Shown here: piece after piece, positions 4,521-57,139 of the stretch
How positions within the stretch are numbered: the stretch's first letter is position 1
Layout: each line of letters begins with the position of its first letter
Source of the DNA: Takakia lepidozioides
Taxonomy: Eukaryota; Plantae; Bryophyta
DNA length: 64,000 nt
Direction: 5' to 3'
NCBI GenBank assembly: GCA_030704615.1
Contig: CM060734.1
Span: 5,518,001-5,582,000, forward strand
Made by a program: the position numbers and the translations under genes
Notes under the pieces: generated by a model
Told to the model about the DNA's origin: nothing
Seen by the model: only the letters and a program-made list of their open reading frames with translations
Database searches by the model: none

Positions 4521-5770
4521 TTAGGTATTCGTGGCCTGGCAAATTTGAGATGGTGCCATCGATGGCATAGTTGGTTCTGTCTGAGCCGATGTGAAAGACT
4601 GTGGAAGCCTTATCTGACGACTTGATTCCCCCATTTGTGGATCGAAATCCACATCCGGTCCTCTTGGCTCAGGAGCACATGTTGCTGCTCGAGTGACAAC
4701 AGCAGCATCAGAGCCCAGTGCATGCAATGGCCTTGCAAGTGCGGCTCCACACACGAAGCCCATACCAATCTGGTCTGCCCTAGGCAATGCAACGACATGA
4801 TTAAGAGATTGTGCAAGTGGGGCTTGAACCTCCAGCCTTGAAGCTGGCACAACATGAGTAATGGCCATGGCAGCAAGCCGTTGCTCTAGCTGGGCAAGCC
4901 TATCCACCATGCCTTGGTCATGACATTGACCGGCTGACCATGGTTGGTTACGACCTCCACCACGATCTCTACCTCCCCTTGCTCTCTGAACCACATTGTC
5001 TTGTCCGCGACCACCGTTGTTTCCTTGGAACTGGCCTGGTCGTAGCTCAGGATGCAAGTCATAACAATGGGCCTTTTCATGCCCATACTTGCCACAATGC
5101 CCACACTGCAGCTGTGTAGGCTGTGCCTGTACCGACCCTTTGCTTCTTTCTGGGCAATCCTTCTTAACATGGTCTCCTCCACAATCCCAACATGTCACAC
5201 CCGACTGTTGTTGGCCTGAGAATGATGGAAGAGACCTCTGCATTTGAGATCCTCTCTGACCTTCCATGGGCTTCATCTAAGCCCATTTGTTGCCTTGAGT
5301 TCGTTGAGGGGTTGGTTGTTGTTGGTTAGGAGCCTCACTTTGTTGTGTCTCTTTGCAAAATCCCACCATAACCACCCGCTCCTCCACCATGTTGAGCTCT
5401 ATCCGCTTTGCCAGCAAAAACACATTTGCTACGTTCTAGAGTTGGGCCACTTCTAGGAGAGTTGCATCCCGCACCCTTCTCCTCAGCTCTTTATCCAATA
5501 TCCCATACTACCTGAGTTTCAGTGACCCCTTGAGTCACACTTATCAAACGTCTCATACGAGTGTAGGCCTCCTCAAACTCTCAGTAAGCTTGCGTTGGAG
5601 CTCTTGCAGCTCCGCAACTTATCTGTCATCACTCCCTGGTAGTTCCCCCTCAATTCCTCGAAGAACTCTACAACTGAGTTAAAAGTAGGCACAAGTGCCA
5701 GTATTGCGGCATGAGCATGGGTGGACGTCCTAGCTCATGTACCACTTGTCCTACTGCTGCTTATAGAAGC
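4521..5770 (-). mobile_element. Degenerate gag fragment of the same family as the DNMT-carrying Gypsy element
   Basis: CWDCGGDHVKKDC and CGHCGKYGHEKAHC Zn knuckles, plus LRPGQFQGNNGGRG and RLPQSFT; colinear with 24500-25700. Confidence 0.85.
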
Positions 5771-6575
5771 TGTCGGTGTTGCTGTCATTAGAAAAAAGAT
5801 GAGGCCAAAGAAAGGCTGTCCCAAGCCATTTGTGCCCTATAGCCCCTCAAGGCGGGCAGAAATATTTTGGTCGATTTCAACTGCCACGGTGGCAACACGG
5901 TAGCAACATGGGTGCCACGCGTGTTTTCGCGCGCCGGTTCTCTCCGGGGTTTTCGCGCGCCTCCCCGCTGGCCCGTTCTGGCGCGCTTCTTGCCCACAAT
6001 TCAGCTACTCTCAGCTTAGTTCCAGCTCCACGCTCAAGCTCCCGCTTTGCTGCCCAGACATGCCAGTGACTTGATGGTGCTTTCTTCGTAGGGTATGCTA
6101 CAGCCGTTTTGGATTTGTTGGTTGGAATGTGCAATTGTATCTGCGCCAGGTGAGAGAAATGAAGGCCAAGGCGCGCGGCATTGCCTACGAGAAAAAGAAG
6201 CGCAAGCGCCCATCTCCTGCGAATAGTGCTCATGTTCTCCCAGCTGCCACCCAATAATCTTTGTGACTGTCAAGGATCATAGGCAGTTGTATTTCTTGAC
6301 GGAAAAATCCAATGCTGACATGTGAGTCCGGGTATTGTCAAAGGAGCTACTCACATCCCCTTGCACCCGGCTGTTTTGGAAAAAAATCCAAGGCTGTTCT
6401 TTTGAATCAAGAATTTAGTTACATAAAAAATGCGGGTCTACCTTAGCATCGAGATGCTCCTTTGGTTGAAGGCCATTCTGCAGCACACTTCAGAAATCAT
6501 TCGACATCATCCCCATTAATGTGACTCATTGGGCGACTGCGCGCCGCCGATGAAGAGAATGGTGGGAAACCATAA

Positions 6576-15453: not shown

Positions 15454-16045
15454 TCGTAATCTGAGAGCAGAGAGAATGCAGACCTTTTATCCATTTGGTA
15501 TTCAAGTCCAAGGATAGAACTACATTGTAGAGGGAGAGCCTTATGAGAATGGGTCTGGTATGCGCACTCCCTTACGGAGTGAGTGCATACCAAACTCACT
15601 CCATAAGGACTGCCATACCAGGGGGGGGTTGGTGGGTGCCCTCTCTCCTCTCTCTCAATTATCTGTTTGGGATTAACAATTTTTTTCCTAAGCCTATCTG
15701 GTTTGGAAATACCTTCTTTCTAATCCCTTTCATCCGGTAGGGATGAAATCCAAAACATATTCCATTAGGGATTAGAAAGAAGGTATTTCCAAACCAGATA
15801 GGCTTAGGAAAAAAATTGTTAATCCCAAACAGATAATTGGAGAGAGGGAGAGAGGGGCCACCCACCATCCAACCCCTGGTATGGCAGTCCCCTTATGGAG
15901 TGAGTTTGGTATGCACTCACTCCGTAAGGGAGTGCGCATACCAGACCCATTCTCATAAGGCTCTCCCTCTACAATGTAGTTCTATCCTTGGACTTGAATA
16001 GCAAATGGATAAAAGGCCTGCATTCTCTCTGCTCTCAGATTACGA
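15454..16045. repeat. ~590-bp foldback/MITE-like palindrome
   Basis: Arms TCGTAATCTGAGAGCAG...TTCTAATCCC and GGGATTAGAA...CTGCTCTCAGATTACGA, ~275 bp each with few mismatches, around a ~40-bp spacer. Confidence 0.9.
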
Positions 16046-18200: not shown

Positions 18201-18486
18201 AGGGACGTTTTAAGCATCACTGGATAGCTTTAGGTCTGAAGATGTTACTCCAGCACCATATCAATATGATGCCAAAGTTCAGACTGGTATCATGCTAGAA
18301 AAACTGACTTATAATCAGGTTAAAAACCCCCGAGTCTTAATAGAACGTATGTATTCTAATAACCACTCCAGGGCCTAAATCTGCCTTGACCCCTGGATTG
18401 ACACTTGGGCCAATTACAAATGTCAATATGTAAAAGCTAGCTATTTCCTAGCTAGTTTCACACTAGTGGTAAAATAACTTGACAGC

Positions 18487-18676
18487 TGTCGTGCGCATAC
18501 ATATCGCTACACAACTACATCGCTATCCAAAAACCACACAACACATGTGCACACCACACACTAGTATACCACTAGTCCAGCCACTAGTCCAGCCACTAGT
18601 CCAACCACTAGGCTACAACTAGTCAGTCACTAGGCTGCCACTATGCTGCCCACTATGGCAGTCACTAGTCCACACA
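18487..18676 (-). repeat. 3' terminal repeat (LTR-like, 190 bp; TGTGTGGAC...GCACGACA on minus)
   Basis: Reverse complement of 28596-28785 with 2 mismatches; contains a CTAGTCCA(G/A)CCA x3 sub-repeat. Confidence 0.92.
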
Positions 18677-18678
18677 AT

Positions 18679-18690
18679 CGCCCCCCTAGC
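18679..18690 (-). other. Polypurine tract
   Basis: Minus strand GCTAGGGGGGCG-AT immediately before the TG of the 3' repeat. Confidence 0.7.
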
Positions 18691-18936: not shown

Positions 18937-19080
18937 CTATCCCAAGCAGTGTGGACACAACCAATCTCCGTCAGGAACCTTCTCAAGAGGTGGTGTCAAG
19001 CATCACATATGCCAACCCCTTGAGCATTGATCACACACCAGCATGGTGGCTGCCCCTTTGGCAGACCCACAGAGCATGCA
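18937..19080 (-). pseudogene. PHD finger at the integrase C-terminus (one in-frame TGA at 19003-19005)
   Basis: Manual translation CMLCGSAKGAATMLVCDQCSRGWHM*CLTPPLEKVPDGDWLCPHCLG* gives C4-H-C3 with the WxCxxC end. Not in the ORF track. Confidence 0.9.
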
Positions 19081-20270
19081 CCTCAAACCTGCAGGTACCA
19101 CTGCCAAGTTTGGGTCAACTCTGCCATCGACATTGGGAAGGTGACATGGCGCACAATTACGCACATGGTCCTTCCAATCATGCCATCCTGACCCTCCAAG
19201 ATCAGGACCCCTGAGGGCAACACCTCTCGAACCCTCAGAATAACACGCCCTGCAGTAACATCCAGAGTCGTAGGAGCAGTCTGCTGCAAATAAACATAGT
19301 CACCAGGGCTAAACCTCCGAACCCCAGGACGATATCATCCACCACGTATAGTAGCATACCTCAACGTATCACGGTGTTGTGCAATGGCAAGGTTCTCAAA
19401 AGCCATGGGCATGACTTTCTTGAACAACTCTGCACGCTGATCACATACACGTACCCACACGTCTGGGTCGTCAAGGTTAAGGACTTGAGCAGTGTCCCTA
19501 CGAATGGCTGCAGGCAAATCCGGCTCTCGGCCAAAGAGAAGGAAATATGGTGAGAAGGAGGCAAGTGATGCTTGTTTGCTGAACCTGTAGCCCATGGCTA
19601 ACCAAGGAACCTAAAGATCCCAATCTCCTAGGTGTCCCTTCTGCAAGCCATACTTGCGCAAACCCCTCTTCACTGTCTGAACAACTCTCTCTGCTAAGCC
19701 ATCGGCCTCAGGATGATCCCGAGAAGTGGTGCGGTGGTCTATCAAGGCTTTATCACACAAAGCCTGAAACTCCCCCAAAAACTCTCTCCCTTGGTCCGTG
19801 AGTACCTCAGCTGGAGCACCAAATCGGCTAAGCACACGATCCAAGAATGCATACGCAGCCCCCTCACTAGCCTTGTCAGGCAATGGAACCAACTCAATCC
19901 ACTTGGAGAAGTGCTCCACCATCACCAACACATATCTGTGGTGGCGCATAGTCAGTGGCAACGGTCCTGCGAAGTCAAGACTCCACCTGTAGCCCAATCC
20001 CATGATTGGTAAAGGATGCAACTGTGGTGTAGGGGCGTTGAATGAAGCACGCACCCTGTCACACACCATGCACCTAGCCACGAACTGTTGCACCTCTGTA
20101 TGCATACCACGCCACCAATACTGCCCCTGCAGTAAACTGTGAGTGCGTCGCACTCCAAAATGCCCCAACTCCTCATGGGCATGCCGCACTAACCGTGCAC
20201 GCTGTGTGGGGTGAGCACAATCCTCACCCGACCATCCTCCCACACTCGAAGTAGGTGTATCCCCTCCCAC
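19081..20270 (-). pseudogene. Gypsy DDE integrase
   Basis: HEELGHFG...CMVC (HHCC), SLDFAGP, VLTDQGREF, DGLAERVVQTVK, FSPYFLLFGREP; stops at 19611 and 19335. Confidence 0.92.
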
Positions 20271-21177
20271 TTGAACCTCTTGGCTCGTTGCAGGATCCGA
20301 TCCCTCTCCCTGGCAGTCACAATGGCTGCCGTGTCTCCCGTGCGGAGGTAGTCCAACACAGCCGAATCCTCATGTATATCTCTGGCACCACCTAGCTCAT
20401 CACTAGCCTCAGGGTCCTCAGACACTCCGTCTACAGTCATCCCTGTTGTAGGTCCAATCTGACCTCCCGATGCCAAGATACACAAAAATGCAGATGCATG
20501 CCATCCCGACACCATCTCCTCGTCCGTCTCACCATGCCACCGAGCTCCAGTGTCATCCTGCTGGCTCATGCATGGATTGCGACTCAATCCATCCGCATCC
20601 CGATTGACCAAACCTGGTCGATGCACAACCTGAAAGTCATACTCCTGGAGTATAAGTGCCCACCGTGCAAGCTTCCCCGTAAGCTTGTCTGACTCCATCA
20701 ACCACTTGAGTGGCTGGTGATCCGTGACAAGGGTGAAAAGATTGCCGTATAGATAGCACCTGAAGTGTGCCACGGCCCACATTGCAGCTAAGCACTCTCC
20801 CTCATATGAGCTGTACTTAGCCTCTGCAGCGTTGTTCGAGCGGCTAGCGTAAGCCACTACGAACTCTCTTCCCTCATCATCCACCTGTGTGAGCACCGCT
20901 CCAAGCCCCAGCATGCTCCAATCCGTATGCAGCTGAAAGGGACGCCCCCTGATAGGTCGTCTCAAGATAGGCGCCGAGGTCAACCTCGCCTTGAGCTCTT
21001 GAAAAGCTCGTTCCTGCTCATCTTCCCACTGCCACTCCTGGTCCACCTTGGTCAGCTTGGTTAGAGCCTTTGCAATGGTACTAAATCCCTTGACAAACCG
21101 TCTATAATAGTTTGCCAACCCCATGAAAGCTCGAACTCGGCTCACATCCGTGGGGCGTGGAATTTGTGCAATGGCCT
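20271..21177 (-). pseudogene. RT connection and RNase H
   Basis: FMGLANYYRRF, LHTDWS, YEGECLA, LVTDHQPL, DADGLSR. Confidence 0.92.
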
Positions 21178-21960
21178 CTACCTTAGTTGCTGTACCCCCA
21201 ATCCTCCAGGATATATCATGTGACCCAGATACTCAATCTGGTTGTGGAAAAACTTGCACTTCCCCGGATGCAACTTCAATCCGTGCGCTCTCAAGCGCTC
21301 CAATACCACCTGAAGGTGTCTCTCATGCTCCTCCATCGTAACACTAAAGATGATGATGTCATCTATGTAGCACCGAGCAAAGTCCACCCCTGCTAGAATC
21401 CTATCCATGACTCTCTGAAACTCTGCAGGAGCATTCTTAAGCCCAAATGGTAAGAACCGCCACTGATATAGGCAATCCTTGCCGTGCTCATTGATCCCCC
21501 AGAATGTCGTCTTCTGCTTGTCCGCCTCCTTGATTGGCAACTGGTGATATCCGGATCGTAAATCCAAAGTGCTAAAGGCCTTAGCATGCCCGATGGCATC
21601 AAAGATCTCCTCTGGTGTTGGCATGGCATACTTATCGGACTTGGTCTGACGATTTACAGGCCGGTAATCACCGCACATACGTCTCTCCGTCCAATTGCCA
21701 TAGACATCCTTCTTGGCTGGCATCACTGTGGCTGAAGCATACTCTCCACCAGAGAGCTCCACCAAACCTGCCTCCCAGAGATCTTGAGTCCTCATCTGAA
21801 TCAAAGACCTCTCCATGTCACTGTATCTATAGGGTCTCCGAAAGATTGGCGTGTCAGTGGCCAACTCAATACGGATCTCTTGACCCTTCAGTGCTCCCAA
21901 GTCCTTCAAACTGAAGGCAAAGCAATTCCTGTAAGCCCTCAGGAACCGCCGTATACGTCG
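21178..21960 (-). pseudogene. Reverse transcriptase
   Basis: [32 protein letters not shown]; frameshift near 21190. Confidence 0.95.
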
Positions 21961-22369
21961 TCTCTCTCCTCCGGTGACAATGGGTCCAATGTCAGGCTCC
22001 CAATTGTCCTCCGTAACTACAACCTTAAGTCCAGTGGGCTTAGAGGTAGAGGACGCGTCAGTGGTTGCTATGCTGCAACCTCTTGAGCAGTACTCCCTGC
22101 CTGCTCAGTCAATGACAAGACCTCATCCTGCCCCATCATCTCATCATTGAGGACCTCCTCAACCCGAGAAGAATCCCCAACCTCATCATCACAGCCGCCT
22201 TGGCTGCCAACTCCCTCTGAACCTCGAGCACCTCCCACGTGTGCCATGGATGCATGCACCCCGTGGTCCTCACATGCTCGCCCCCACTCACTGCCTGTAC
22301 CGTCTCGGTAGGCAGAGAGACCATTGAGGGAAGTGTACTCCGCACTCTGCGTTGCTCAGCCAGAGCCAA

Positions 22370-23320
22370 GCTGATAATCCAGGTCAAGCAATTGAGATCC
22401 ATTGCTTGCCCCAACACTTGACGACGTGATGCCTCAGAAAGAGACGACACCGCCGTGGTACCAGTGGTAAAACCCATTGCCCGCTCACGCTCGTCAGCAT
22501 TAGGCTCCACTAACTGCTGCAACTGAGCATCCCACAGGAGGCCAGGTCCACTATCCCGGAAAGCATGCGATCCTGGGAAGCTGAGCAGTGTAGGTAATGC
22601 TGCTCGTGGTTGACCCACCTTGTTGACCACTGCCAAAGGCGAACGGTCATCGTGTCTCACACGCTGAGACTGCCTCCCTGTGTCCAGAATGTTATCCACT
22701 GTGAGATGTGCTGGCCGCTGCACCCCATCAAATGCACGCTTGAGCAGTGCGGGTGGCATCAAGTTAGTCCACCATAGCCGTGGACGATGAGCCCGTGACC
22801 CCACTGTAGCTGCATCTAGCAACACTGCTGACCCAAGCCACGACCGGACTTGATGCACACTGGCCATCACCCTGGCCCGAGAATCGCCCATCAGTGGCAC
22901 ATTCTCCAAGATGTATGCTGGAGATACAGCTTGATGAAGCTGCAAGTGGCGCAAAACCCGCACCATCTCCCAAAACAGACCCGACCTCGAGTCTCGCAAT
23001 CCATTGCCATGCCCGGCTGATGAATGCCCTTGGCAGGGCCAACCTGCCACTACCAGATCAATGGAGCCAACCCGCTCCAAATCCTGCGCCCCCAGCAACG
23101 AAATGTCTGCTGGCAAGGCCTGCTGATATCCACGAATTGCAGACACCGACAACAACTCAGGGTACCGCTGCACCAACTGAGCAACATGGCGAAGTGAAAC
23201 GCGTCGTGCAGTCTCATCCCTCTCCACATACAGGTAACGCCAAACTCGTACACCTGCTTGTAACACAGCAGCCAATCCGGTGCTGATCCCGCCAAACAAG
23301 TCCAGAAGACAAATGCCTTC
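22370..23320 (-). CDS. C5-cytosine DNA methyltransferase domain (DNMT3-like) inside pol, part of ORF 22136-23950
   Basis: Motif I LDLFGG, motif II YVERD, motif IV GWPCQG (catalytic Cys), SGLFWE, motif VI ILENV, motif VIII AHRPRLWWTN, motif IX ERAMGF, motif X LGQAMD. Reading frame uninterrupted. Confidence 0.93.
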
Positions 23321-23729
23321 ATCCGGATACTGCCACACAATAGGTGTGGTGTCCAATGGAGACAATTGAGGTGGTCCTGGTGCAATCCCCACACTCTCCT
23401 CCTCTCCTGACGGTACAAAAGCCTCCACCCAGGCTTGTTGCACCCGTCGATCAGCATCCCGCTGCAAATCCTTGCTCGTGCCCCACAATGGAGTCTGAGC
23501 AACCATGGTAGGCAACTCCGCCATACCATACATGTCATCCTGCTCTCCCGGAGGTGGTACATCCTCTGAATGAGCATTGCCCTCAAGCAACTCTCTAGGC
23601 CAACTCACTGCCGCTGTGAATGCTGCTAGTGTCGGCATCTTGCCTCGCTGGGCAACCGCAACTCCTCCTATGAACGTCACAGGGAGCTGCACACGCCGGC
23701 CCTCCCCTGACTGCCATGCAGGCCTATAG

Positions 23730-24060
23730 GAAGCTGACTCCTCCCAAAAATCCAGGGTGAAGCCCATGGGGTACAACACTGCCCCACCAACCAGGACATC
23801 GTATGAGACTGCGTCTGTCACAATGGCCTTGGCTCGCATCACTGAGCCATCTGTAGGGTGATCCGGCCGTAGTCTGATAGCCAACTCACGCCGTGTCATG
23901 CCCCGAGCCTGCTCCGATCCTCCAGAGACGTCTGTATCTGGAAAGGACAAGGCTCCATATCCGCCTCCGTGAGGCCCAAGCCTGCAATAGCAGCTCTGCC
24001 CAGCATCAATGGCTGAGCTCCCGAGTCCAACAAGACCCGCAGTGGCCGGTACCTCTTGCC
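23730..24060 (-). pseudogene. Aspartic protease
   Basis: VLLDSGAQPLMLG...YDVLVGG; 1-nt frameshift near 23930. Confidence 0.85.
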
Positions 24061-24099
24061 TGCCGGTCCACTCAAACAGAAAATGCCATCCTGGTTGTC

Positions 24100-26061
24100 T
24101 AACATGACAACTCCAGGTGTCACCATGGCGCGCTCAATGGCTGGCCTAGCTGGCAGCTCCATCAACCTGGCAGCTGCAGCTTGCCATGGCGCCGCCGTGG
24201 CAGTCTTGACCCTCAAATCCGAGGATCCCTCCGGCACTACACCTCCCACTATCTCCGCAGAAGATGAAGTAACCTCCCCACTCTCACAGAGTGTAGCTGC
24301 CAGCCTGAACACCTCAGCTGGTCTTACCCCCGGCGTCGCAATCATGGTAGCCGAGAACAATGGAGCCTGGCACACAGATGTGGCCGCTCCTAGCAGCACA
24401 CTAGCTGCCGTAGCCTTGGCAACACTAGGTAGTGGTGCTACCCGTGTAGCTCTCCCCAATGGCATAGTAACCTCCGCCTCGGTAACAGTCGGGCGAGAAC
24501 TAGGTGCCATGGATGGCGTCGACACTGTCTCCGCCAATGTGAATGACTGAGGAAGCCTAGCCTGACGGCTTGCCTCCCCACGCTGTGGATCCAACTCCAC
24601 CTCTGCACCTCGTGGCTCAGGAACTCGTGCTGCTCCTCGAGTCACGGCTGCAGCAGACTCCACCTGCACTAGTGGTAGTGCTGCTCCACACATGAATCCC
24701 ATGCCTCCCATATCTCCTCCCTCAGGAGCAGGAGGTGGACCATCCGGCCTTAGAGCCGGTACCACCTGAGCTGTAGCCATGGCAGCGAGCCTCTGCTCTA
24801 GCTGCTAAAGCCGGTTGGCCATGCCTTGGTCAACACCCTGACCTCCGCGTCCTTGGCCACGTTGAGCTTGCCCTTGGCCTCGTGGCTGGCCACCTCGTCC
24901 TCTCTAGGCTGCTCCACCTCGCCCCCGGCCACCATTGTTCCCTTGGAACTGGCCTGGGCGCAACTCAGGATGCAAACCATAACACTGGGCCTCTCCATGC
25001 CCGTGCTTGCCACAATGCCCACACTGCAACTGTGCAGGCTGTGCATGTGCCGACCCTTTGCCTCCCTCTGGGCAATCCTTCTTGACATGGGGTCCTCCAC
25101 ATGTCCAGCACACCACATCCGCCCGTTGTTGGCCAGCAAATGAAGGGAGAGACCCCTGCATCTGAGGTCCTCTCTACCCTTCCCTGAGCTTCACCTGAGC
25201 CCCCTTGTTGCCTTGAGCACGTTGAGGTAGTGGTTGGCTAGGAGCACCACTACCCCGTGGTGTCTCCTTAGCAAATCCCACCATGACCACTCGTTCCTCC
25301 ACCATGTTGAGCTCTATCCGCTCTGCCAGCAAAAACACATTTGCTAAGGTGGGTTGGGCCGCTTGTAGGAGAGTTGCATCCTGCACCCTTCTCCTCAGCT
25401 CCTTGTCCAATATCCCATACTAGAATTGGACTGCCTGAGCTTCCGTAACCCCTTGGGGTTACATTTATCAAGCGCCTCATGCGAGTGAAAGCCTCCCTCA
25501 AGCTCTCGGTCGGCTTCCGTTGGAACTCTTGCAAGCTCCGCAACTTCTCTGTCCTCACCCCTTGGTAGTTCCCTCTCAACTCTTCGAAGAACTCCACAAC
25601 AGGGTTGAAGGCAGGCACGGGTGCTAGTGCTGGTGCGGTAGTGGCTTGGGTGGACGTCGTAGCTACTGTACCACCAGTCCCACTGCTCCTTGCTGAAGCT
25701 GCCGGTGCAGCGGCAGGTGTAGCCACTGCCCTCGTGGCTCTAGTGCCCCTAGTGATAGAGACATAGTCGGGTGACTAGTACATCCTCCACTCCTCGATCT
25801 CAACCTCATGCCCCCGCCTGAACTCATGTAATCATCCATAGGCGGCCCCTCAAGGTGCTGAAACAGCCCCTTCCATGCCATGAAAGGCGTAAATAGTTGT
25901 GGATTGCGCATTTGCTGCAAATCACACCAACTATCAAACTCTTGGATAAAATCATCCAACTCGATGGTGCCCACCGCCCCAGAGTACCTTCGTGGCCCCT
26001 TGGTAGCTCCATACATCTCCTCCATTGTGTCCCACAACAATGGCAAAGAAACAACTTGCAC
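24100..26061 (-). pseudogene. gag with two Zn knuckles
   Basis: LDDFIQEFDSWC, FQRKPTESLREAFTRM, CWTCGGPHVKKDC, CGHCGKHGHGEAQC; several frameshifts. Confidence 0.85.
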
Positions 26062-26967: not shown

Positions 26968-27985
26968 TGGTCACAGCCGTCACAGCCCCAAAGGCCTCAG
27001 GCACGGCCTGTCACAGCCCCTCACAACCCGTCACAGCCCCAAAGGCCTCAGGCACGGCCTGTCACAGCCCCTCACAGCCCGTCACAGCCCCAAAGGCCTC
27101 AGGCACGGCCTGTCATAGCCCCTCACAGCCTGTCACAGCCTCAAAGGCCTCAGGCACGGCCTATCACAGCCCCTCACAGCCCATCACAACCCCAAAGGCC
27201 ATGGGCACAGCCTGTCATAGCCCCTCACAGCCCGTCACAGCCTCAAAGGCCTCAGGCACGGCCTGTCACAGCCCCTCACAGCCCCACAGGGCACAGGGCA
27301 CAGCCTGTCACAGCTCGCCACAGCCTGTCACAGCCCCTCATAGCCCGTCACAGCTTGCCACAGCCTGTCAGAGCCCCAAAGGCCTCAGGCACGGCCTGTC
27401 ACAGCCCGTCACAGCCCGTCACAGCCTCTCAGGCACGGCCTATCATAGCCCCTCACAGCCCATCACAGCCCCAAAGGCCATGGGCACAGCCTGTCATAGC
27501 CCGTCACAGCCTCAAAGGCCTCAGGCACGGCCTGTCACAGCCCCTCACAGCCCCTCACAGCTCGCCACAGCCTGACACAGCCCGTCACAGCCCCACAGGG
27601 CACAGGGCACAGCTTGTCACAGCTCGCCACAGCCCGTCACAGCCCCTCATAGCCCGTCATAGCTTGCCACAGCCTGTCACAGCCCGTCACAGCCCCAGAG
27701 GCCACAGGGCACAGCCTGTCACAGCCCCTCACAGCCCCTCACAGCTCGCCACAGCCTGACACAGCCCCACAGGCCACAGGGCACAGCCTGTCACAGCCCC
27801 GCACAGCCCGTCACAGCCCCACAGGCCACTTGGCACAGCCTGTCACAGCCCCTCACAGCCCGTCACAGCTCGCCACAGCCTGACACATCCCGTCAGAGCC
27901 CCACAGGGCACAGGGCACAGCCTGTCACAGCCCCTCATAGCCCGTCACAGCTTGCCACAGCCTGTCACAGCCCGTCACAGCCCCA
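26968..27985. repeat. ~1-kb TCACAGCC/GTCACAGC minisatellite in the element's 5' leader
   Basis: ~51-bp higher-order units such as GTCACAGCCCCAAAGGCCTCAGGCACGGCCTGTCACAGCCCCTCACAGCCC. Confidence 0.9.
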
Positions 27986-28595
27986 CCCATGGCCGCTCTG
28001 GCAGTTTAGCCATTTCTCCAAGGGGTTTAGCCACGCCAAGCTAGGGTTTGTGTCTCTTAGACTCTAGGCTTCTTTCCACTGAGCTATGGTGGCTGTGAGG
28101 AAATCAGCAAGGTATCCTTGCTCTTTCGGCTCCCACACACCACCATAGTAGCCCTAAGCCATGAGGTGGTTGCCACAAACCAAGCCTTCTTTCTCACTTA
28201 GCCTCCCCAAACACGCCACTAAACTCAATGGCAAACAACCAAGCCCTGCTGGTTCCCAGCCCTTGTGAGCACTCATTCAAGCACTCTCATTGGCCATAGC
28301 ATCTGTCTTAGAGCCTATTTCAGCCCTCTACACCTGTTGCTTCAAGAGTTGCGCTCCCTTCAAGCTTGAAGTTGAAACCCCAACTCACATAGGCCCTACA
28401 AGTGCTTTTCTTTCACTCCAAGTGGAAACCAGCCCTAGACCTTCCGTTCTAGCTCTCTAAGGCTTGAAAACAAGAGCCTCAATGGGCTGAAGGCATGCTC
28501 CACACATGCCCCACTCTCACCATAAGAGAATCAGCTCCTTTGCTTCATTTCTTGCACCCGCATGAGCTTGTGCTTGTATTCTTCTTCTTTATCAT

Positions 28596-28785
28596 TGTGT
28601 GGACTAGTGACTGCCATAGTGGGCAGCATAGTGGCAGCCTAGTGACTGACTAGTTGTAGCCTAGTGGTTGGACTAGTGGTTGGACTAGTGGCTGGACTAG
28701 TGGTATACTAGTGTGTGGTGTGCACATGTGTTGTGTGGTTTTTGGACAGCGATGTAGTTGTGTAGCGATATGTATGCGCACGACA
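28596..28785 (+). repeat. 5' terminal repeat, inverted relative to the 3' repeat
   Basis: Plus strand TGTGTGGACTAGTG...ATGCGCACGACA is the same sequence the 3' repeat carries on the minus strand. Confidence 0.92.
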
Positions 28786-31285
28786 AGTGCCGCGGTGCGC
28801 TTGGCTCCGCCGTGGCCCGCAAGCGGGCTATCATGACATTCTCTCAAGAGACTATCTCTGATCCCTCCCTTCGGCACGTAGAGACGTTTTTGCTTATACC
28901 GGAGCAGTCCATTTTGCAAGTGGAACTGCGATTTAACCCCCATCCTCAAGTCCTGCATCACGGACTTCGTCAGCTCATCCTTCCGGCAAGCCTTTCGGAT
29001 CTTCCTTTGGAGCGCCGTCTCGCCCTTGTACACCAACAAGAGCTGCTGCTTTCTACTTAAAGCATCGGCCACCACGTTGTCTCGTCCCGGTTTGTACTGG
29101 ATATCCACGTCGAACACCGCCAAAGTATCTTGCCACCTAAGTTGTTTTGGGGACAACTTGGGCTGCGTGGCAAAATACTTCACCGTGACATTGTCCATGA
29201 ACACCTTCACTGGGTTGGAACCAACATAGTGGCGCCAAAGCTCGAGGCAATGCACCACCGCCTTCATCTCTTTTTCGTGCGTCGGCCACCGTCGCTCCAC
29301 TTCATTCAGTTTCTTACTTTCGTAAGCCACTGGACGTCCATCTTGCATAAGTACACCCCCAATCGCGAAGTCCGATTCATCTGTATGAATCTCAAATGGA
29401 CGATCGAACTCCGGGATTTTCAAGACTGGAGCTTCCGCCATCCGCTGCTTCAATTCAGCAAAAGTTTGGCCACAAAATGTATTCCATTCCCAAACTTTGG
29501 ATTTACACAGAAGGTCCGACAACGGCCCCGCGATCTTGACAAAATTTCTCACATACTTCCGGTAATAGGAGGCGAGTCCTAGGAAGGATCGCACTCCCGG
29601 GACCGAAGTCGGAGGCTCCCAGTCCAAGATCGCCCTCACCTTTCTGTTATCCATTTTGATCCCATCTTGTGTAATCACATGCCCCAGGAACTCCACTTTT
29701 GTGACCCCGAATTCGCATTTTGAAGCTTTGGCATACAGCTTCCCTTCTCGCAAGTTTTGGAACACCCTTTTTAGGTGCTCCAGGTGTTCTTCCTTTGTTT
29801 TCGAGTACACCAAGATGTCGTCGATGTACACGATCACAAAGTCATCCAACCACTCCTGGAAAAGGCTGTTCATCAGCGTGCTAAATGTCGCTGGTGCATT
29901 GGTGAGCCCAAAAGGCATCACCAAGAACTCATATGAACTATACCTTGTCATGCACGCGGTCTTCTCCTCATCTCCTTCCGCCACCCGAATTTGATGATAG
30001 CCGGAGCGCAAGTCGATCCGGCTGAAATACTTCGCTCCTGCCAACCGATCGAAGAGGTCGTCGATCTTTGGCAAAGGGTACCGGTTTTTTATAGTCACCT
30101 TATTCAGAGCCCTGTAATCGACACACATCCACAGCGTCCCATCCTTCTTGTCTGCAAATAGCACCGGGGCTCCGTAAGGTGACTTACTCGGCCGGATATA
30201 CCCCTTTGACATTAGATCCTTGAGATGAGTTTTCAGCTCGACCAACTCTCTGTGGCTCAACCGGTAGGGCGCCTTGGCAGGCGGTTCCGATCCCGGTATC
30301 ACCTCAATCTTGTGGTCAACTCCTCTTCGCGGTGGCAAGCCGCTTGGTAAATCCTCCGGCATCACATCCTGGTATTTCTCCAAAATCCCCTTGATCCAAT
30401 CTGGGCTCGGCTCCCCATCGCCTTCTCCTTTCACTTCTCTAATGTAAAGCAAAAATTGGGGCTCGTGTGCCTCCTCCACGGCCCACTCCTTTGCTGACAG
30501 AAGGTTTATTCGCCCTCCCACGGATTTGGGCGTTTCCGACACTCGTAAACCTCGCCACCATTCCCACATGGCAGCGTGACTACTCTCTTGCGGCCATCTA
30601 TGACCGCTCCGGATTTGCTCAAAAAGGTCATCCCCAAAATGAGATCCACTCCATCGATCTCGCAGATGGTGAAGTTCTCACGTCCCTCCCAACTCCCCAG
30701 TTGAAGAGGAACATCAAATGCCAACCTTGTCGCCAACTGTGGTTCTCCTTTGGCAGAACGCACCTCAATAGAGGCCCCCACGTCACTTGTCGGGAGTCCC
30801 AACTTTCGCGCCGCCGCCGGCGTCATGAAGGAGTGCGACGCTCTTGTGTTCACCAACAATGACACGTTAGTTCCGGATATTATCCCATCCACGAACAATA
30901 ACTGACTCCCTTTACGCAGGGCGCCAGTTTCCTGATACAACTCACAAGAATAGTTGCCTACCTTGCAAGTCCTGGCGACCACCGCTTCCACCAAGCGACT
31001 GATGGTATCTTCCGACAGCTCCGTGGTTGCCCGAGTCATGTTCAATTGTCGAGGTTTTGTGCACTTCTTGGCCATGTGCCCGGGCTCCCCGTAATTGAAA
31101 CACACTCCATCAAAGGTCGCCTTCTGTCCGCCATAAGCCGCTCCACCCGCTTTTCCTTTCGAAGCACCGGGTGCCGCCTTGACGTGTGAATGCCCTCCCT
31201 TCGATTTCCACGTGCCATTGTCGCCGCGTGGCCTATCCCACTTCTTTTCCGGTCGGAAGGAGTGCAAACGTGTGACGGACCGCAA
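28786..31285 (-). mobile_element. Second Gypsy (chromovirus-like) gag-pol, integrase cut off by the DNMT element
   Basis: Zn knuckle CFNYGEPGHMAKKC, mutated protease LVNTRASH, RT YIDD, RNase H (DES/EKE/DN/ADALSR), integrase start [11 protein letters not shown] ending at 28786. Confidence 0.9.
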
Positions 31286-33567
31286 GTGCGGCCCTTACTC
31301 TACGTAAATGTTCCTTCAAAAAAATCCCGCCATAGCCGCCCAGATTTCTTTTAGGCTTCTTCCACCCGCTGCGGCATCTTCTTTGCTTCCCGCTCCTTTA
31401 GTTCGTCTGATCTCGGAAAGATGCTGGAAAGATGCTAGAAAGACGTGGAAATGGGGGAATAGTGGCAGGAGTGACCTTATGGGATGGAACATCACTCCGC
31501 AAATTTCGGTTACGTTCCATGCCCGTCAAGGTGGGAACACATCTCACGAGTCAGGAGATTGCAATGCTGGAGGAAGCAGATTTTTCCCTTGCGAGCATAA
31601 TTCAACTTCTCCCCCGGGGCGTTAGGGTTCACAAGTATAAGCCAACCAAAAATACAAAGGATTTTATTCAAGCAACGTTTAGGAAATGATACTTTACAAC
31701 GATCGCGGGAAGGTAAGATAGTTTATGGGACAACGAAAAGCAAAAAAAACAAGGGAAGTGGGTCGCCCAACAGTCAGCTACCACAACCAGAAGATTACAA
31801 ATCTAAGGTGAAGATTCAGCTAGAAACCACAAGGCATCAAAGATTGGGTGTCTCTAAATAATAGGCGGAAGTAGCAGCCCAGCAGTTTCCTAGTCACCAG
31901 AAAGTCAAGTGATGCTGAGTCTCAATCTCCAGCCTTTCTCTGAGCAGCTCCATCCACCCCTGTAGAGGAACATGCCAATTCTTCTTTGAATTAGGAACAT
32001 CTCTCATCCATTCTTGCCGTGTATTTTCATCTATCCTCTACGAACTGCTGCATGGTAATACCTGACACTCTGTCTGGAGAGGATAGATGCTATTTCACGT
32101 ACAGCAGTGCGATCCTTGCTACGCGTCGGACGTGTACTGTGTGGCAATACTGCTATGTACATGTGTGGTCCCACAGGAAAAAGCAAGGCCAACAAACCAC
32201 ACCTCCTGTGCCTTGAGCTGGAAGGTCGAATTGGGTTTGTCATGCGGCAACATTCTGTATGGACGTGTTTAGACTGTGAATCGGATTCACAGCATATTTG
32301 ATGATGAGCAAAGCAGCAGCATCAAAACAACTGGGATAATCCGCTCTGAAAAGTCTGGCACTGGAAGTCCAGCGTGCTGTTTTGGGGGTCACAGCAAACT
32401 TGGAGCTTACATCCAAACAAAAAGACAGATGGATCTTGCAACTGTAGCCTGAAGTGTTGATGTTCTCGGTAAGCTCAACCCGCATCCACATTTTGGGGGT
32501 TGCCGGCCCACCAGACTATTCTCCTTGTGAAAAAAATGAGTTTCAACATCATCCCTTGCATGGTAATTTTTCTCCTGAAGGCCATGGCCCCATGTACCAA
32601 GTACAGGGTGTGGTATGCTCATAGAAGGGAAGAGAAGCCCCAAAACTGCAGCAGGACCACCTGCCTGGGAGGTAACACAACCTGGGGGCACTATACGTGT
32701 GGGCTTGGACCACTGCACTGACGAAACCCATCAGTTGGTGGAATTGCACTTCAGTCTTTGTTGACCGCTTCACTATGATCTGCTGGGATGTTGCGCTCGA
32801 TCACAGAAGATTCTAAAAAGTTTAATTAGTCGAGAATAGTAAGCTCTAGGTTTAACAAAATTGCGCTGGGTGTGAGTGGCCGTTACTAAGTGCTCTACCT
32901 CCTAATAGGAAGCAGCAGCTGTTCCCAAAGGGGGGATCAGTTATCTAGAGCATGACTTCTTCATCATCTCCTAAAGTACTTTGCTAGGATGTGGAGATCC
33001 AAAGCTCGCAAGACCCTGGTTATGTTTGGCCAGCAATGTCCATGGAATGTATGAAGAGTGGGCATGCATCGCCAGCCGTATGCCATGCTGAGAGAGACAG
33101 AAAAGTCTGGGCCCACAAGAGCAACGGAGGGATAAGAGATGTTTGTCGGCATGCTGGTTCTTGGTGTTTTCCAGCCCCGTGGCATGAATTACATGGATAC
33201 CTCCTCCTGTTTTGTCTGATGAGCTTGGACCAACCTCTGCTGCCTCACAACTACCAGCGTCACCCCTACTGTCCTCCTCCCCCCCCCCCGCCTGCAGCTC
33301 TCTCTTCTCCGAGCCGCTTCAGAATACCGGCCAACCGCCCCCGGCAGCTGCTGGTGATGCTACTGTACCAGTTGTTGCATGCTGTTGCCACAAGTTCTTT
33401 CCTCCCTCAGGACAACACCCACCGGCCTGCAACACCACGATCATTGAGAAGAATGCTGGTGAATTGTACAACCAGAACGCAAAATTCAAGCGAAATTCGA
33501 GGTTCCTAGAACGCAGGTTTAGGAGACCCTGGCTTGAGGGATCAAGTGCAGCTCGCACATCAGATCA

Positions 33568-34236
33568 ATGAAACCTGCCCTACGTGGGCAGGCTGTGATT
33601 GCAGCAGAGAGGAACACGAGGCATTTACAGTATGTGCCTTCACCGTCGGATCCAGTTTCTTTTGGTGGGCCATCGTCAATGTTCAGCCCCAACCTGGTGG
33701 TGGTGATGGCAGTGCTTCTGGTGGCATTGTTCCTGGCAGCATTCATAAACACGGTGGCGCGGTGCCTGATGCGGCGCCAAGCCCGTGCCTCAGAATCGGA
33801 GGGAGCGCCTCAGCGTGACAAGGGCCTGAAAACATGCGAAATCGAGTCTCTTCCTGTGGTAGCCTACGGCGAATCTTCCATGCTGCATTTGGAGGGTGCC
33901 AACATTAACGAGTGTGTCATTTGCTTGGGTGAGTTTGTAAAGAATGACAAGATGCGACTGCTCCCAGTTTGCAGCCATGGCTTCCACCTGAGCTGCATCG
34001 ACCTGTGGCTGTCCACCCATTCCTCCTGCCCTGTGTGTAGACACAGAGTCCTTGATTTTGGCGATCTGTCCGGTTCGCAAGATGGTCCACCGGATGTGCA
34101 CCATGATATTCAGCCCGACAGATTAGTCAGCCGGCCAATAGATAGTGAGAGGTCCGATCAGCATATTACGATCGAAATGCAACCTAGGCAGGAGGCGATG
34201 GAATATACAGCTGCAGCCGGCACCAGCCGATTGTGA
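33568..34236 (+). CDS. ATL-family RING-H2 E3 ubiquitin ligase
   Basis: N-terminal TM (LVVVMAVLLVALFLAAFI), GLD-like KGLKTCEIESLP, and RING-H2 CVICLGEF...LPVCSHGFHLSCIDLWLSTHSSCPVC; intronless and intact. The start could be the Met at 33679. Confidence 0.92.
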   Translation: MKPALRGQAVIAAERNTRHLQYVPSPSDPVSFGGPSSMFSPNLVVVMAVLLVALFLAAFINTVARCLMRRQARASESEGAPQRDKGLKTCEIESLPVVAYGESSMLHLEGANINECVICLGEFVKNDKMRLLPVCSHGFHLSCIDLWLSTHSSCPVCRHRVLDFGDLSGSQDGPPDVHHDIQPDRLVSRPIDSERSDQHITIEMQPRQEAMEYTAAAGTSRL

Positions 34237-36740: not shown

Positions 36741-37232
36741 CATGGCGGATAGGACTCTCCAGGCTGGCTGTGACGTGGCGCTTGAGCAGCTGTGGGGGTA
36801 GTCATACACGTTGGCTTTACTGAATGACTGAACGGACAGTGTAGTCCATGTCAGCGGCTGTGCAAGAGTGACACGTGCTCAATTACAAAAAAATGCACGT
36901 GGCAGAGTGTTCACTCTCCATGACTGTGAACTATGACTACAGGCGTGCTAATCTGGTTGCAACACGTGGCGCGTTGCAGTTTTTACACGTGGTCCCTCAG
37001 CAAATGGGTGATTTTTTTGGGTGTATTGCTATTTTTTTGCATATTTGTATTTCCACCACGTGGTGTAGTACTATTAGAGAGTAAAAATACATGTAGTCAT
37101 TATTATGACTATGGTAGAAGTCATATACATGTATAAATGCATATATAAATGCATATAAATAAATGCATTATGAACAATATTATGCATATTATGTTCTGTT
37201 TGTATTATATGCATAATAATATTATATGCATA

Positions 37233-38948
37233 AGGTGAATGCCTGCTACATTTCAAAGAGTAGCAGACGCAATTCAGCATAGGAACTAGTATGCTACGCT
37301 GAGTTGGGTGTTTCCTAGAACAAATGTAGGCTGTCATTGTCAGCTGCTAGCAGCAAGGCAAGGATGAATGCTTGATTTGTGCAGAGGCATGGATAGCTGA
37401 GAGAGTAGAGATAGAGTGTGGGTGACGTAGGGTGTTTGGCCGTGGGCAAGACGTCTTTGTATAAACGTGAGTGACCTTCCTATCCTCCTGGCTCTCATTT
37501 TTAGTGCATGTTTTTTTGTGAAGTATCTGACTTCGCCAACACACACCAACCTGTTTGTTTACGAGTCCATGGGATAGAAGTTACCATAAACAACACTGGC
37601 ATTGGTTTTTCATATATTGTATTAGATAATTCTCTTAATTGTTTCCGCCTTGGCAGGTTGCTCAATGACCTTCCCTGGACGCTTTGGAGTATAGTGAGTG
37701 AGCGTCTCACAATGCAATGTTGGTTGGTGCATCTTATGCAAGAACTTGGAAAACAAACAGATGTCCTTGTTGTAGTAATTCTTAAAGCCATGCAAGCCTT
37801 AGTTTTTGATGGGTTGCAGATTGATGGAATACATGAGTAGTTAGAAGATTCGGGTGAACACTTTTCAAAGTGTTATAATTAGACAATATAATTCACATGA
37901 GAACATGTGACTATTTTATGTGTTTTGAGATCGCGACAAAAATGATAATGATAAATAGAGATGGTGTACAATCTCTTGGTTTTGCTCAGCTTGTTGCAGT
38001 TATGTCTTGCTGCTGTTCTGTTTGTATTATATATTATATTTCATTGTTATTATTTCATATAAATGCATTTATCTTATATGCATTATAAATGCATATATAT
38101 ATAATGCATTTATTTTATTTTATTTCATATAAATGCATATATATGTATCATTGTGTTATATTTCATACATGTATAATCATTACGACAATGAAATATACTA
38201 TATAATACAAACAGAACAGCAGCAAGACATAACTGCAACAAGCTGAGCAAAACCAAGAGATTGTACACCATCTCTATTTATCAATCTATTTATCATTATC
38301 ATTTTTGTCGCGATCTCAAAATACATAAAATAGTCACATGTTCTCATGTGAATTATATTGTCTAACTATAACACTTTGAAAAGTGTTCACCCGAATCTTC
38401 TAACTACTCATGTATTCCATCAATCTGCAACCCATCAAAAACTAAGGCTTGCATGGCTTTAAGAATCACTACAGCAAGGACATCTGTTTGTTTTCCAAGT
38501 TCTTGCATAAGATGCACCAACCAACATTGCATTGTGAGACACTCACTCACTATACTCCGAAGCGTCCAGGGAAGGTCACTGAGCAACCTGCCAAGGCGGA
38601 AACAATTAAGAGAATTATCTAATACCATATATGAAAAACCAATGCCAGTGTTGTTTGTGGTAACTTCTATCCCATGGACTCGTAAACAAACCAAAGCAAA
38701 CAGGTTGGTGTGTGTTGGCGAAGTCAGATACTTCACAAAGAAACATGCACTAAAAATGAGAGCCAGGAGGATAGGAAGGTCACTCACGTTTATACAAAGA
38801 CGTCTTGCCCACTGCCCAGCACCCTACGTCACCCACACTCTATCTCTACTCCTTCAGCTATCCTAGGAAACACCCAACTCAGCGTAGCACACTAGTTCAT
38901 ATGCTGAATTGCGTCTGCTACTCTCTGAAATGTAGCAGGCATTCACCT
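37233..38948. repeat. ~1.7-kb inverted duplication (arms ~37233-38047 and ~38185-38948) around an AT-rich spacer
   Basis: Mirror ORFs 37508-37840(+) / 38404-38787(-) and 37501-37791(-) / 38453-38866(+); scattered substitutions and indels between arms. Confidence 0.9.
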
Positions 38949-54570: not shown

Positions 54571-54991
54571 GCCATCCTGGTGGGGGGGGGGGGGATTGGG
54601 GGTTGATTTTGGGGGTGAATTGGGAGTGGTTTTTGTTTTTTCCCTGGTTTGTTTTGGGGTGTTGGGAGACCTTACAGCTTCCATTGCTCTGATTTAGCAG
54701 GTACACATTGAGCAAGCATGAATCGAGGATGAGCCGGTGCGACACATGAATAAGATGAAAGATGGAAAGATTAAAATATATTTACAAGCAATGAGCAGAA
54801 ATGCTTTGCTTATAAGGGTTCAGTAGGCTGACCCTGGGACCTACACGGACTATGACTAGTATCCTCATCCTCATCCTAAGAGGAGGACTCATAGCTATCG
54901 ATGAGCCTGAGTGACTCCGCGCCTTGTGGAGCACCTAAGCAGGGCGGGTTCCCCTAAGTCCACAGAGTCTCATCCGATCCCTGCCATGACC

Positions 54992-55031
54992 ACCCCCCCC
55001 CCCCCCCCCCAAAAGAAAAAAGAAGAAAAAA

Positions 55032-55070
<39 letters not shown>

Positions 55071-55089
55071 AAAAAAAAAAAAACAAAAA

Positions 55090-55140
<51 letters not shown>

Positions 55141-55422
55141 AAAAAAAAAAGAGAAAAAACAGAAAACAAAAAAAAAAAAAAAAAACAAAAAAAAAAAAAG
55201 AAAAAAGAAATAAAAAAAGAAAATAAAAAAAAAACAAAAAAACAAACAACAAACCAAAAACAAAAAAAAAAAAACAAAAAAAAAAAAAAAAAAAAAAAAA
55301 AAAACAAAAATAAAAAAAAAAAAAACGAAAACAAACAACTAAAAAAAAAAAAACCCCACCCCCACCCAGCACCCCCCCCCCCCCCCCCCCCCCCCCACCC
55401 CCCCCCCCCCCCCCCCCCCCCC
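54992..55422. other. Poly-C/poly-A/poly-C low-complexity tract, probable sequencing or assembly artefact
   Basis: Only long homopolymer runs; gives spurious poly-Phe and poly-Lys ORFs. Confidence 0.7.
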
Positions 55423-57139
55423 TCATCCATACTAGTGCCCGTTAGTGCAATCATCCCCTACGTGTTGGCCATGTTGTCATGAGGGATTGCCAACCATGCT
55501 CCCTGGCGTAGTTATACTCTACCGGAGATGGCTCCTCTCAACGCGCGTTGCTATACATGCCACAAATTAAAGTCAGTTCCTCACGATGATGGAGCCAAAA
55601 AGAAGACAACAAAATACATAGGGAAGTATGACTTACAAATTGCAAGATAAAACCCTTGGATCCACCGGGGCCCCACTTGTGTGTGGGTTCGTGCTTGTCA
55701 AGGCGGGCTGTTGTTGCTTCGCATGCTTGCTCAAATTTGGCCTTTTTTGCCGCATTATTCTCTCCCGCATTGAGTGCATCCCATGATACCCTACCTATCG
55801 CCCCCCCCCCCCAAAAAAAAAACAATTAGTGAATTACACACATACGTTGCATCTGTTGAGCAGCTTTTACTCACCCATCCCTTAGTTATCCGAGGTGGAA
55901 ACTCCAAGATAGAAGAGTTGGAAATCTCTTAAGTACTCAACCCGCTCGAACAATCAGTCATGACCTACAGTAGTGTATCATGGGGGTGTTTTCCTATATC
56001 GGTTCCTTCTTGCATTCATGTTTGGTATGTTACCCTATTGCCTATGATTTAGTATCAGATTGCTTCTGCAATTTACCATGTTCCATCTACTTAAGCATTC
56101 ATTCCACAGCTTCACTCGGGTCTCTCTACACAGTGTGAGTATAAAATGTATCGTATTAATATCTATCATGTGTCAGGCCGAAGCCATGGTGTCGCACACC
56201 TCCACTTCGGTAAGCTCCCCTTCAAGTCATAGGTACTTGCTTTGATGCGCGGCGCCTAACTCCCAACCTGGCCGCCGGGCCAAACTTGGAGCTTCGGGCT
56301 GCTCACCGGGGCATAACGGTCCCCCTTTGATCTCCCAAAGAACCCTCCACCGATTTGGGTCCAGCGGGAATTCCCTTTGGTAGTTGGTAGTCCGGAACAG
56401 CTCCCCACTTTGGTCGCTTTCCGGCTCGCCTCGCTTACTCACTAGTTTTTGGTCACCAACGGGCTTGCACCGTTCTCGGGGTTACTACTCCCTATATATA
56501 CTCTGTAGTGTCCGCGGGGGTTTCACAACCAGCCAGCCATTGCCTTTATGGCGAACCACCACGAAAACCCTCGACTCCCGTGATGAGTCGCGGTGAGTCT
56601 TGGCCCACTCACAAGGGCCCCTATGGACCGTGATGAGTCCCAAGACTCTCCACGACTCCCACCACGAGGTCTCGCCCCCATGGTGAGTCCTATGCCACCC
56701 CACTAAGTACCGCTAGCTACCACCACCCCTTTGTGGAGCCACCCCCACCGCAACCCGGTGTGCGGGGCTCCACCTAGTGAGTGCCTCCGCCTCCTTGAGT
56801 GCCTTGGGCACTCAAGGGTGCTTCAGCCCCCCCATACCTATCGCTGCCGCTGCCCCCACCACAGGGGCAGCCCCTCATGTGTCCCGACCCCCTGCCCTCA
56901 AGGCAAAGGGCCGCGACACATGGTGTCTCTATTCTGCCCTACAGTACATCTTCTACAGCTTGCATGTATCAAACAACAACAGATCATCTCTCTTCCTCCG
57001 TGTGCTCTCCATCCCTGTGCTCCCTGAAGTGATGCCCTCCATGTAGCTACTCTACATAATATGTTTGCAAGCTGTTCTAACCGCTTAACTAACTAACTAA
57101 CTACCAGCCAAGACAGTACGTAAGTACTGCCGTTCCCTC

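Follow-up and report, generated by a model that had tools for sequence, protein, structure and literature searches.

A DNMT3-like methyltransferase inside a Gypsy retrotransposon of Takakia

We analysed a 64,000-nucleotide stretch of the genome of the moss Takakia lepidozioides (assembly GCA_030704615.1, contig CM060734.1, positions 5,518,001 to 5,582,000; hereafter the window), in which a decayed retrotransposon on the minus strand encodes a DNA cytosine methyltransferase (DNMT). The domains of this element follow one another as gag, protease (PR), DNMT, reverse transcriptase (RT), RNase H (RH), integrase (INT) and PHD finger (Table 1). It has the marks of a Ty3/Gypsy element, namely the PR-RT-RH-INT order, a DDE integrase, a polypurine tract (PPT), TG...CA ends and a target duplication, the last known from relatives. 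No tyrosine recombinase of the DIRS/Ngaro kind was found in the scanned open reading frames (ORFs), where Pfam returned rve and H2C2 instead; the protease of relatives matched PF13650/PF13975.

A preliminary description of this DNA had claimed a complete, non-permuted, DNMT3-like C5 methyltransferase between PR and RT, sharing a frame with the C-terminus of the protease, and both claims held up. The 315-residue domain matches PF00145 (E 1e-12), the profile which that description had proposed as a check, and carries LFGG, WPCQ, ENV, HRPR, ERER and GQAMD in non-permuted order; motifs I, IV (PC), VI (ENV), VIII (RxR), IX and X and the fold of C5 cytosine methyltransferases are all present. Motif I is N-terminal and motif X C-terminal, which is not the permuted layout of DRM. 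The nearest solved structures by sequence are DNMT3A and then DNMT3B (phmmer 1.9e-11), with DRM2 and HhaI far weaker. An AlphaFold2 model of the domain, with a predicted local distance difference test score of 92.9, matched solved structures in Foldseek (E 6.9e-20) and superposed on DNMT3A with Z 28.8 and a root-mean-square deviation of 2.4 over 263 residues. A stop-to-stop frame on the minus strand (22136-24133) holds both the DNMT and the C-terminal half of the protease. These results confirm that the domain is a real, complete, non-permuted methyltransferase of DNMT3-like type; the DNMT tree contained no plant host DNMT3.

Table 1. Features of the retrotransposon, in window coordinates
Feature	Position	Strand	Remarks
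Tandem-repeat array, likely 5' leader	26970..27986	.	family contigs reach both edges
gag, two CCHC-type knuckles	24800..26025	-	several frame breaks and stops
Aspartic protease, LLDSG motif	23714..24067	-	frame break near 23920; C-terminal half in DNMT frame
DNMT3-like C5 cytosine methyltransferase, 315 aa, open	22376..23320	-	catalytic Cys codon near 23035, ENV near 22906
Linker at ORF1 C-terminus, ~100 codons, acidic	22071..22375	-	frame shift near 22186 in window copy
ORF1 stop and 3' context, TAG CAA CCA, CAR-YYA type	22062..22070 (stop 22070-22068)	-	putative readthrough site into RT
Reverse transcriptase	21181..22020	-	frame breaks near 22060 and 21187
RNase H	20600..21232	-	
DDE integrase (H2C2 + rve)	19200..20210	-	internal stops and frame breaks
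PHD finger, C-terminal	18940..19083	-	one internal stop; PF00628 E 2.5e-12, stop read as X
Polypurine tract before repeat B	18678..18687	-	same motif in L010, L013, L015, L017, L022
Terminal repeat B1 (TG...GACA)	18487..18676	-	
B-A junction, 10-bp palindrome GACAGCTGTC	18481..18490	.	
Terminal repeat A2 start, truncated	18359..18484	-	left limit approximate
Inverted piece, likely tail of repeat A + B2 (B2 28596-28785)	28559..28785	+	abuts truncated integrase of second Gypsy element

The window holds one dead copy of a multicopy family

The lesions that the preliminary description had seen in the other domains are there: translations and an indel table gave about 13 in 7.1 kb of coding sequence, about eight of them frame breaks and five internal stops. 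Its suggestion that the DNMT had been specially preserved at this locus did not survive closer analysis. When 10-14 lesions were placed at random over 7.1 kb, a 945-nt stretch stayed clean in 14-24% of 20,000 simulations, and the DNMT of dead relatives (L001-L032) has 11.1 lesions per 1000 aa, compared with 9.8-11.0 in gag, PR, RH and INT and 5.9 in RT. Because a clean stretch of this size is frequent by chance and the DNMT of dead relatives is as damaged as its neighbours, we attribute the open frame to chance and reject it as a sign of selection at the window locus (P 0.14-0.24).

Contigs of other sequencing runs cover the whole element (504 in X6, 321 in X7) and most of them differ at the frame breaks of the window, which is why we regard the window element as one dead copy of a multicopy family. 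It makes no polyprotein. That an open DNMT frame lies amid broken neighbours might instead be taken to mean a one-off insertion of a host gene, or a domesticated methyltransferase kept at this locus. We consider this extremely improbable, given that the DNMT occupies the same place in the relatives we fetched and in the contigs from other runs (504 in X6), that several lesions separate it from the start of ORF1, that it has no introns and that its openness is expected by chance. Nor do the copies lack the domain, as the preliminary description had thought a one-off insertion would require; it is common to relatives in several genera.

As a separate observation, run X8 (organism B) yielded a 2724-nt contig that closes on itself with a 30-nt overlap and matches window 20688-23408 at ~99% identity. 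It spans the DNMT, the linker, RT and part of RH, with the rest of the element uncovered; its length equals 908 whole codons, and three further runs of the same study have a similar share. It may be a tandem array or a circle built from the DNMT-RT segment.

The DNMT is conserved in two domain arrangements

A search of longer proteins gave 83 matches, the named ones being Marchantia (18), Sphagnum (2), Closterium (2), Calypogeia (1), Chrzof1 (a JGI model code that we take to mean Chromochloris), as well as one insect DNMT3. Riccia and Marchantia paleacea came in addition from a profile search (among 120 of its 249 matches). Neither a vascular-plant name nor a named Klebsormidium protein occurred among the 83 or among the 120 of 249; most matches are unnamed, so absence from vascular plants is not implied. 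A scan of viral contigs produced 13 pattern matches, none of which was confirmed as a relative. From a scan of metagenomes we used the best 80 of 98 confirmed loci: 32 (L001-L032) had the PR-DNMT-RT order or were assigned there by identity, 42 had the order RT-RH-DNMT-INT, and 6 were unplaced or stand-alone. In the second arrangement, that of an alga-like sister group (L033-L073, L076 and L080), a DNMT of the same clade sits between RH and INT, and the region upstream of RT consists of one long open frame, contains an in-frame TAG in another context (L043, L044, L046, L056) or changes frame.

Catalytic residues were nearly invariant. Across 122 near-full-length relatives, a redundant set, Cys96 was present in 118, Glu139 and Asn140 in all, and Arg181 in 117; many RH-DNMT-INT loci have WECQ for WPCQ (33 of the 122 sequences). 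The ratio of nonsynonymous to synonymous substitution rates (dN/dS) of the DNMT was 0.03-0.20 in eight pairs of intact-looking or distant lineages with measurable dS, after nine saturated and two near-identical pairs had been set apart; RH values involving L004 (a wrong-frame match) and window PR values (which span the frame break) were left out of the dN/dS analysis. A ratio near 1 with unconserved catalytic residues, which the preliminary description had said would undo its reading, is thus not what the family displays. These data support the view that the DNMT is a fixed family trait, under purifying selection, that is present in land plants, and it is likely to be catalytically active in intact copies.

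DNMT and RT distances were correlated among 17 elements (Spearman 0.53, matched in 0 of 2000 permutations; RH-RT control 0.62) and within 12 elements of the RH-DNMT-INT group (0.66), and several starred groups were common to the DNMT and RT trees. The RT tree supported the PR-DNMT-RT group (90/83) and, within it, the stop-bearing subgroup (95/93), with the root and the order of the two architectures not firmly resolved. The DNMT tree, in which P0015 (a partial domain) was not included, does not settle the PR-DNMT-RT group. The agreement of trees and distances fits a single old capture of the DNMT that may later have moved between positions; the direction of that move would be a guess.

L078 and L079, which served as the tree outgroup, are stand-alone C5 methyltransferases on contigs of 512 kb and 195 kb, distant from the retrotransposon clade. 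P0273 (cluster of P0078) is a protein of 4799 aa with OTU-like, RT, PHD, PCIF1-like, C5 DNMT and RNase H domains, possibly from a different class of retroelement with two methyltransferases. The window itself contains a second, truncated gag fragment of the same family (4552-5778, minus strand), 74% identical and without protease or DNMT.

A conserved stop codon separates the DNMT from reverse transcriptase

The preliminary description had placed the DNMT inside pol. Its position between PR and RT stands, but the domain closes ORF1 ahead of a conserved in-frame stop, which would put it at the level of Gag and not of Pol. In the window this stop lies in the frame of the linker, ~100 codons past the DNMT. 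Among 33 PR-DNMT-RT loci (the 32 fetched and the window), L007, L021 and L032 end early and L010 has the junction deleted; all 29 loci that reach the junction have a like stop, TAG or TAA. It is followed by CAA CCA in the window and L001, CAA CCC in 24 loci of one family whose translation resembles Sphagnum models, CAG TTA in L017 and L019, and TAG CCA in L023. The consensus CAR-YYA is therefore exact in the window, L001, L017 and L019, with one mismatch in L023 and the 24 CAA CCC loci. The 29 loci make up five families, with 49-61% nucleotide identity over the 300 nt around the stop.

RT continues in the frame of the stop in copies without nearby frame breaks. The clearest case is L017, where a single TAG CAG TTA joins an ORF1 of 1369 codons to an RT-RH-INT-PHD frame that stays open for 1036 codons or more. 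At the protein level, Marchantia P0003 and P0004 and many unnamed proteins of 1230-1775 aa are Gag-PR-DNMT, with their ends 85-176 aa past the DNMT; taken more widely, many database proteins stop 65-190 aa beyond it. According to the available text of PMC2194720, tobacco mosaic virus (TMV) and other plant viruses rely on CAR-YYA directly behind a stop as their only readthrough signal, and the stop of murine leukaemia virus (MuLV) is read through at a rate of 5%. Because the stop is conserved, its context is of CAR-YYA type, RT lies in the same frame and the proteins end where they do, we read ORF1 as Gag-PR-DNMT and RT-INT as a readthrough product. By analogy with these viruses, readthrough at a few percent is likely, and at a rate like that of MuLV there would be ~20 DNMT per RT.

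Pol might also be made without readthrough, with the DNMT in the same position: the TAG could be part of a splice acceptor, as in Ogre elements, in which an intron removes the stop, or ribosomes could re-initiate at RT, or an internal transcript could encode it, as studied in Tca2. The Sphagnum-like family does have TTTTTGCGTAG before the stop, resembling a 3' splice site, and an ATG two codons on, and the Marchantia and Sphagnum models P0005, P0008, P0012, P0014, P0015 and P0045 join the DNMT to RT or later domains. However, the window, L001, L017, L019 and L023 lack that ATG and have a weaker pyrimidine tract, the junctions differ among the joined models, and CAR-YY is kept after the stop while the flanks diverge to 49-61%. 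A contig of run X12 crosses the junction without a skip, a weak point since that run was only guessed to be RNA. We therefore consider such a route improbable and prefer readthrough.

Split terminal repeats and a palindromic junction

Two full direct long terminal repeats with a tRNA primer site were not found; the repeats of the family are instead split, as A...B-A-B. L022 is complete and reads A, ORFs, PPT, B, GC, A, B. In L004 and L022 the 5' repeat is followed by TTTTCA and not TGG. Both relatives with two preserved ends (L022 and L016) are flanked by 4-bp target duplications. The ends of the window element are rearranged: PPT-B1-GC-A2 remains on the left, a second B lies in the opposite orientation, and there is neither a 5' A nor a target duplication. 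A 192-nt inverted pair in the window was considered as terminal inverted repeats and rejected, as the repeats of relatives are direct and split, and divergence of other copies sets in at 28559; B1 plus a displaced B2 is the better reading of the pair.

The palindrome at the B-A junction, with one variant, occurs in 16 loci including the window and in both architectures, where ~1.2 would be expected; of the 15 loci that extend 2.5 kb or more beyond the PHD finger, 12 have it. The order A-ORF-B-A-B can be obtained from a two-LTR circle by circular permutation. Integrase ends made by a cut after CA are established retroviral chemistry, and by analogy ends of this usual kind would arise if both strands of the palindrome were cleaved behind CA. 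Two copies (L010:9838 and L013:7057) end after B1 without A2-B2, as is expected from B-B recombination or from an integration cut at both palindromes.

A model for a methyltransferase made with the capsid

The explanation that best accommodates these findings, and whose chances as a whole we put at about even, is that readthrough sets the dose of a DNMT of capsid abundance that likely methylates the element's own cDNA before integration. The DNMT would be made as the last domain of ORF1, one with every Gag, and RT-RNase H-integrase-PHD only by readthrough of the conserved UAG-CAR-YYA stop. The enzyme would then be packaged at capsid abundance, in many copies per particle, where the protease would free it to methylate new double-stranded cDNA, probably at CG; insertions would arrive marked and be kept marked by host maintenance methylation. 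On these steps, from release in the particle to the upkeep of the marks, we are evenly divided. The cDNA would likely be circular at integration and be opened by the DDE integrase at GACA^GCTGTC, with the PHD finger likely guiding insertion.

CpG content was compatible with CG methylation: the observed-to-expected ratio lay at 0.27-0.78 in each of the 15 relatives that were analysed and at 0.52 in the window element. This element, like most relatives, is depleted in CpG but not in CHG, although the two DNMT-less Gypsy controls are few and mixed. Host CG methylation could account for this depletion just as well. The main site of DNMT action could also be the nucleus, where the enzyme would work in trans on copies already integrated or on insertion sites, either restraining copy number or modifying chromatin. 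Production at Gag level would give an excess of free enzyme for such a role, and slowing of transposition is among the options in the available text of de Mendoza et al., 2018 (PMC5890265). Yet a silencer that acts in trans is open to cheating by copies without it, and the DNMT travels with RT across the sampled clade (in which DNMT-less members were not searched for); its place between RH and INT in the alga-like group also fits action on cDNA. We think it unlikely that action in trans is the main role, and favour methylation of the cDNA.

Several observations weigh against the model of a readthrough-dosed enzyme acting on cDNA. The CAA CCC family (24 of the 29 loci) does not have the exact CAR-YYA, has TAA in 8 loci and carries an in-frame ATG two codons past the stop. 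The stop is missing altogether from a sister lineage (P0040, P0041, P0232), and the clade therefore does not require a Gag-level dose. The stem predicted downstream of the stop has weak support: six sequences gave z from -0.1 to -2.5, with a covariation term of -0.48. Dead copies within a single family had dN/dS values of 0.43-0.60 for the DNMT, similar to the 0.29-0.51 of RT. CpG depletion is not confined to the family, as ratios in the controls were 0.62 in one DNMT-less Gypsy element, 0.67 in a host RING gene and 0.95 in another DNMT-less Gypsy element. DNMT3A reads CpG with a loop that, in our alignments, differs in the window DNMT, so the sequence context of the enzyme cannot be predicted. 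Finally, the related algal enzyme of KnitGypsy-Dnmt3 gave no methylation in yeast, a result reported as inconclusive in the available text (PMC5890265).

Relation to known elements

The preliminary description had pointed to a DNMT-bearing element from Klebsormidium, correctly: the available text of PMC5890265 describes KnitGypsy-Dnmt3 of K. nitens, with DIRS-like A-coding-B-A-B repeats, a Pol ORF that contains the DNMT along with RT and RNase H, and Ka/Ks under 0.2, and assigns the capture to the K. nitens lineage. Our family resembles it: it too is a Gypsy element whose DNMT3-like domain is non-permuted, lacks introns and evolves under purifying selection, and it likewise joins Gypsy domains to A-coding-B-A-B repeats, complete in L022. 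Unlike KnitGypsy-Dnmt3, which that text gives from a charophyte alga only, it occurs in land plants and its DNMT ends ORF1 before a stop; a single DNMT/RT/RNase H ORF of the KnitGypsy type was seen only in the sister lineage P0232/P0040/P0041 and the RH-DNMT-INT group. A PHD finger has no mention in the main text of the KnitGypsy-Dnmt3 paper as available (PMC5890265).

SymbioDIRS-Dnmt3 of Symbiodinium likewise combines a DNMT3-like domain with A-B-A-B repeats and, according to the same text, methylates CG de novo in yeast (PMC5890265); it has a tyrosine recombinase, whereas our family has a DDE integrase and 4-bp target duplications. The EpiLTRs of Cymbomonas and Euglena are also Ty3/Gypsy-like with a cytosine DNMT and a chromatin reader, but the available text places their DNMT as the sister of DNMT4 and gives them a DAM and a chromodomain in addition, and the authors regard them as a distinct capture (bioRxiv 10.64898/2026.05.21.726589). 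In-frame stops set protein ratios in MuLV gag/pol, SIRE1 env and TMV, the last with the CAR-YYA context (PMC2194720, available text), and the stop described here, known from its sequence, differs from these in following gag, protease and a chromatin enzyme, so that the amount of a DNA methyltransferase would depend on it. The DNMT3-type catalytic fold of the window domain is also that of host plant DNMT3 and DRM, but host DNMT3 is multi-exonic with an N-terminal domain, and DRM is permuted; neither fits. PHD fingers in the polyprotein are common to Gypsy-7a_cRei and other PHD-bearing Gypsy elements of Chlamydomonas, and the available entry for Gypsy-7a_cRei lists no DNMT.

Gypsy-DNMT3 elements are ascribed to 'streptophytes', citing the 2018 work and without land-plant elements being named, in the available texts of PMC12344493 and bioRxiv 10.64898/2026.05.21.726589; those of PMC6453930, PMC11982613, bioRxiv 2021.11.30.470311 and bioRxiv 2022.06.16.496473 contain nothing on land-plant DNMT elements. 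A full-text literature search, with most subscription journals outside its reach, turned up no account of the land-plant elements, their stop or their palindrome. The window element is a land-plant variant of a known system, and what is new is its probable expression logic and the two domain positions within one lineage. As a tentative scenario, whose truth in full we rather doubt, the DNMT may have been captured once in an ancient green-plant Gypsy lineage, been kept from green algae to liverworts and mosses, and moved across the gag/pol boundary, becoming in land plants a leaky-stop-dosed, capsid-level enzyme that methylates a circular cDNA opened at an internal palindrome.

Since 2018 it has been a question what benefit a retrotransposon draws from a silencing enzyme of its own, and the hosts known so far are difficult to manipulate. 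The present family is multicopy in Marchantia polymorpha, a model plant with methylation mutants (18 of the 83 matches are Marchantia models, annotated 'hypothetical'). The conserved stop predicts enzyme at Gag abundance in the land-plant families and at Pol abundance in the alga-like group, and if the model is true new insertions arrive epigenetically marked. A DDE integrase in combination with split repeats suggests that integration takes an unusual route. Such ORFs can also inflate counts of DNMT genes in bryophyte annotations.

Other features of the window

Two further Gypsy elements, both without DNMT, lie at 28786-31294 (minus strand) and 59863-62069 (plus strand), with the displaced B repeat cutting into the integrase zinc finger of the former. 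An intronless host gene of the ATL-type RING-H2 class occupies 33568-34236 (plus strand); among 20 matches the top named one is from a moss (55% identity), and those from angiosperms score lower at 31-56%, mostly 34-45%, which loosely places the host among land plants and probably among bryophytes. Long, near-perfect fold-back inverted repeats at 15454-16045 and 37232-38863 resemble miniature inverted-repeat transposable elements or hairpin loci. A long A-rich run between C-runs at 54940-55440 is possibly an assembly artefact.
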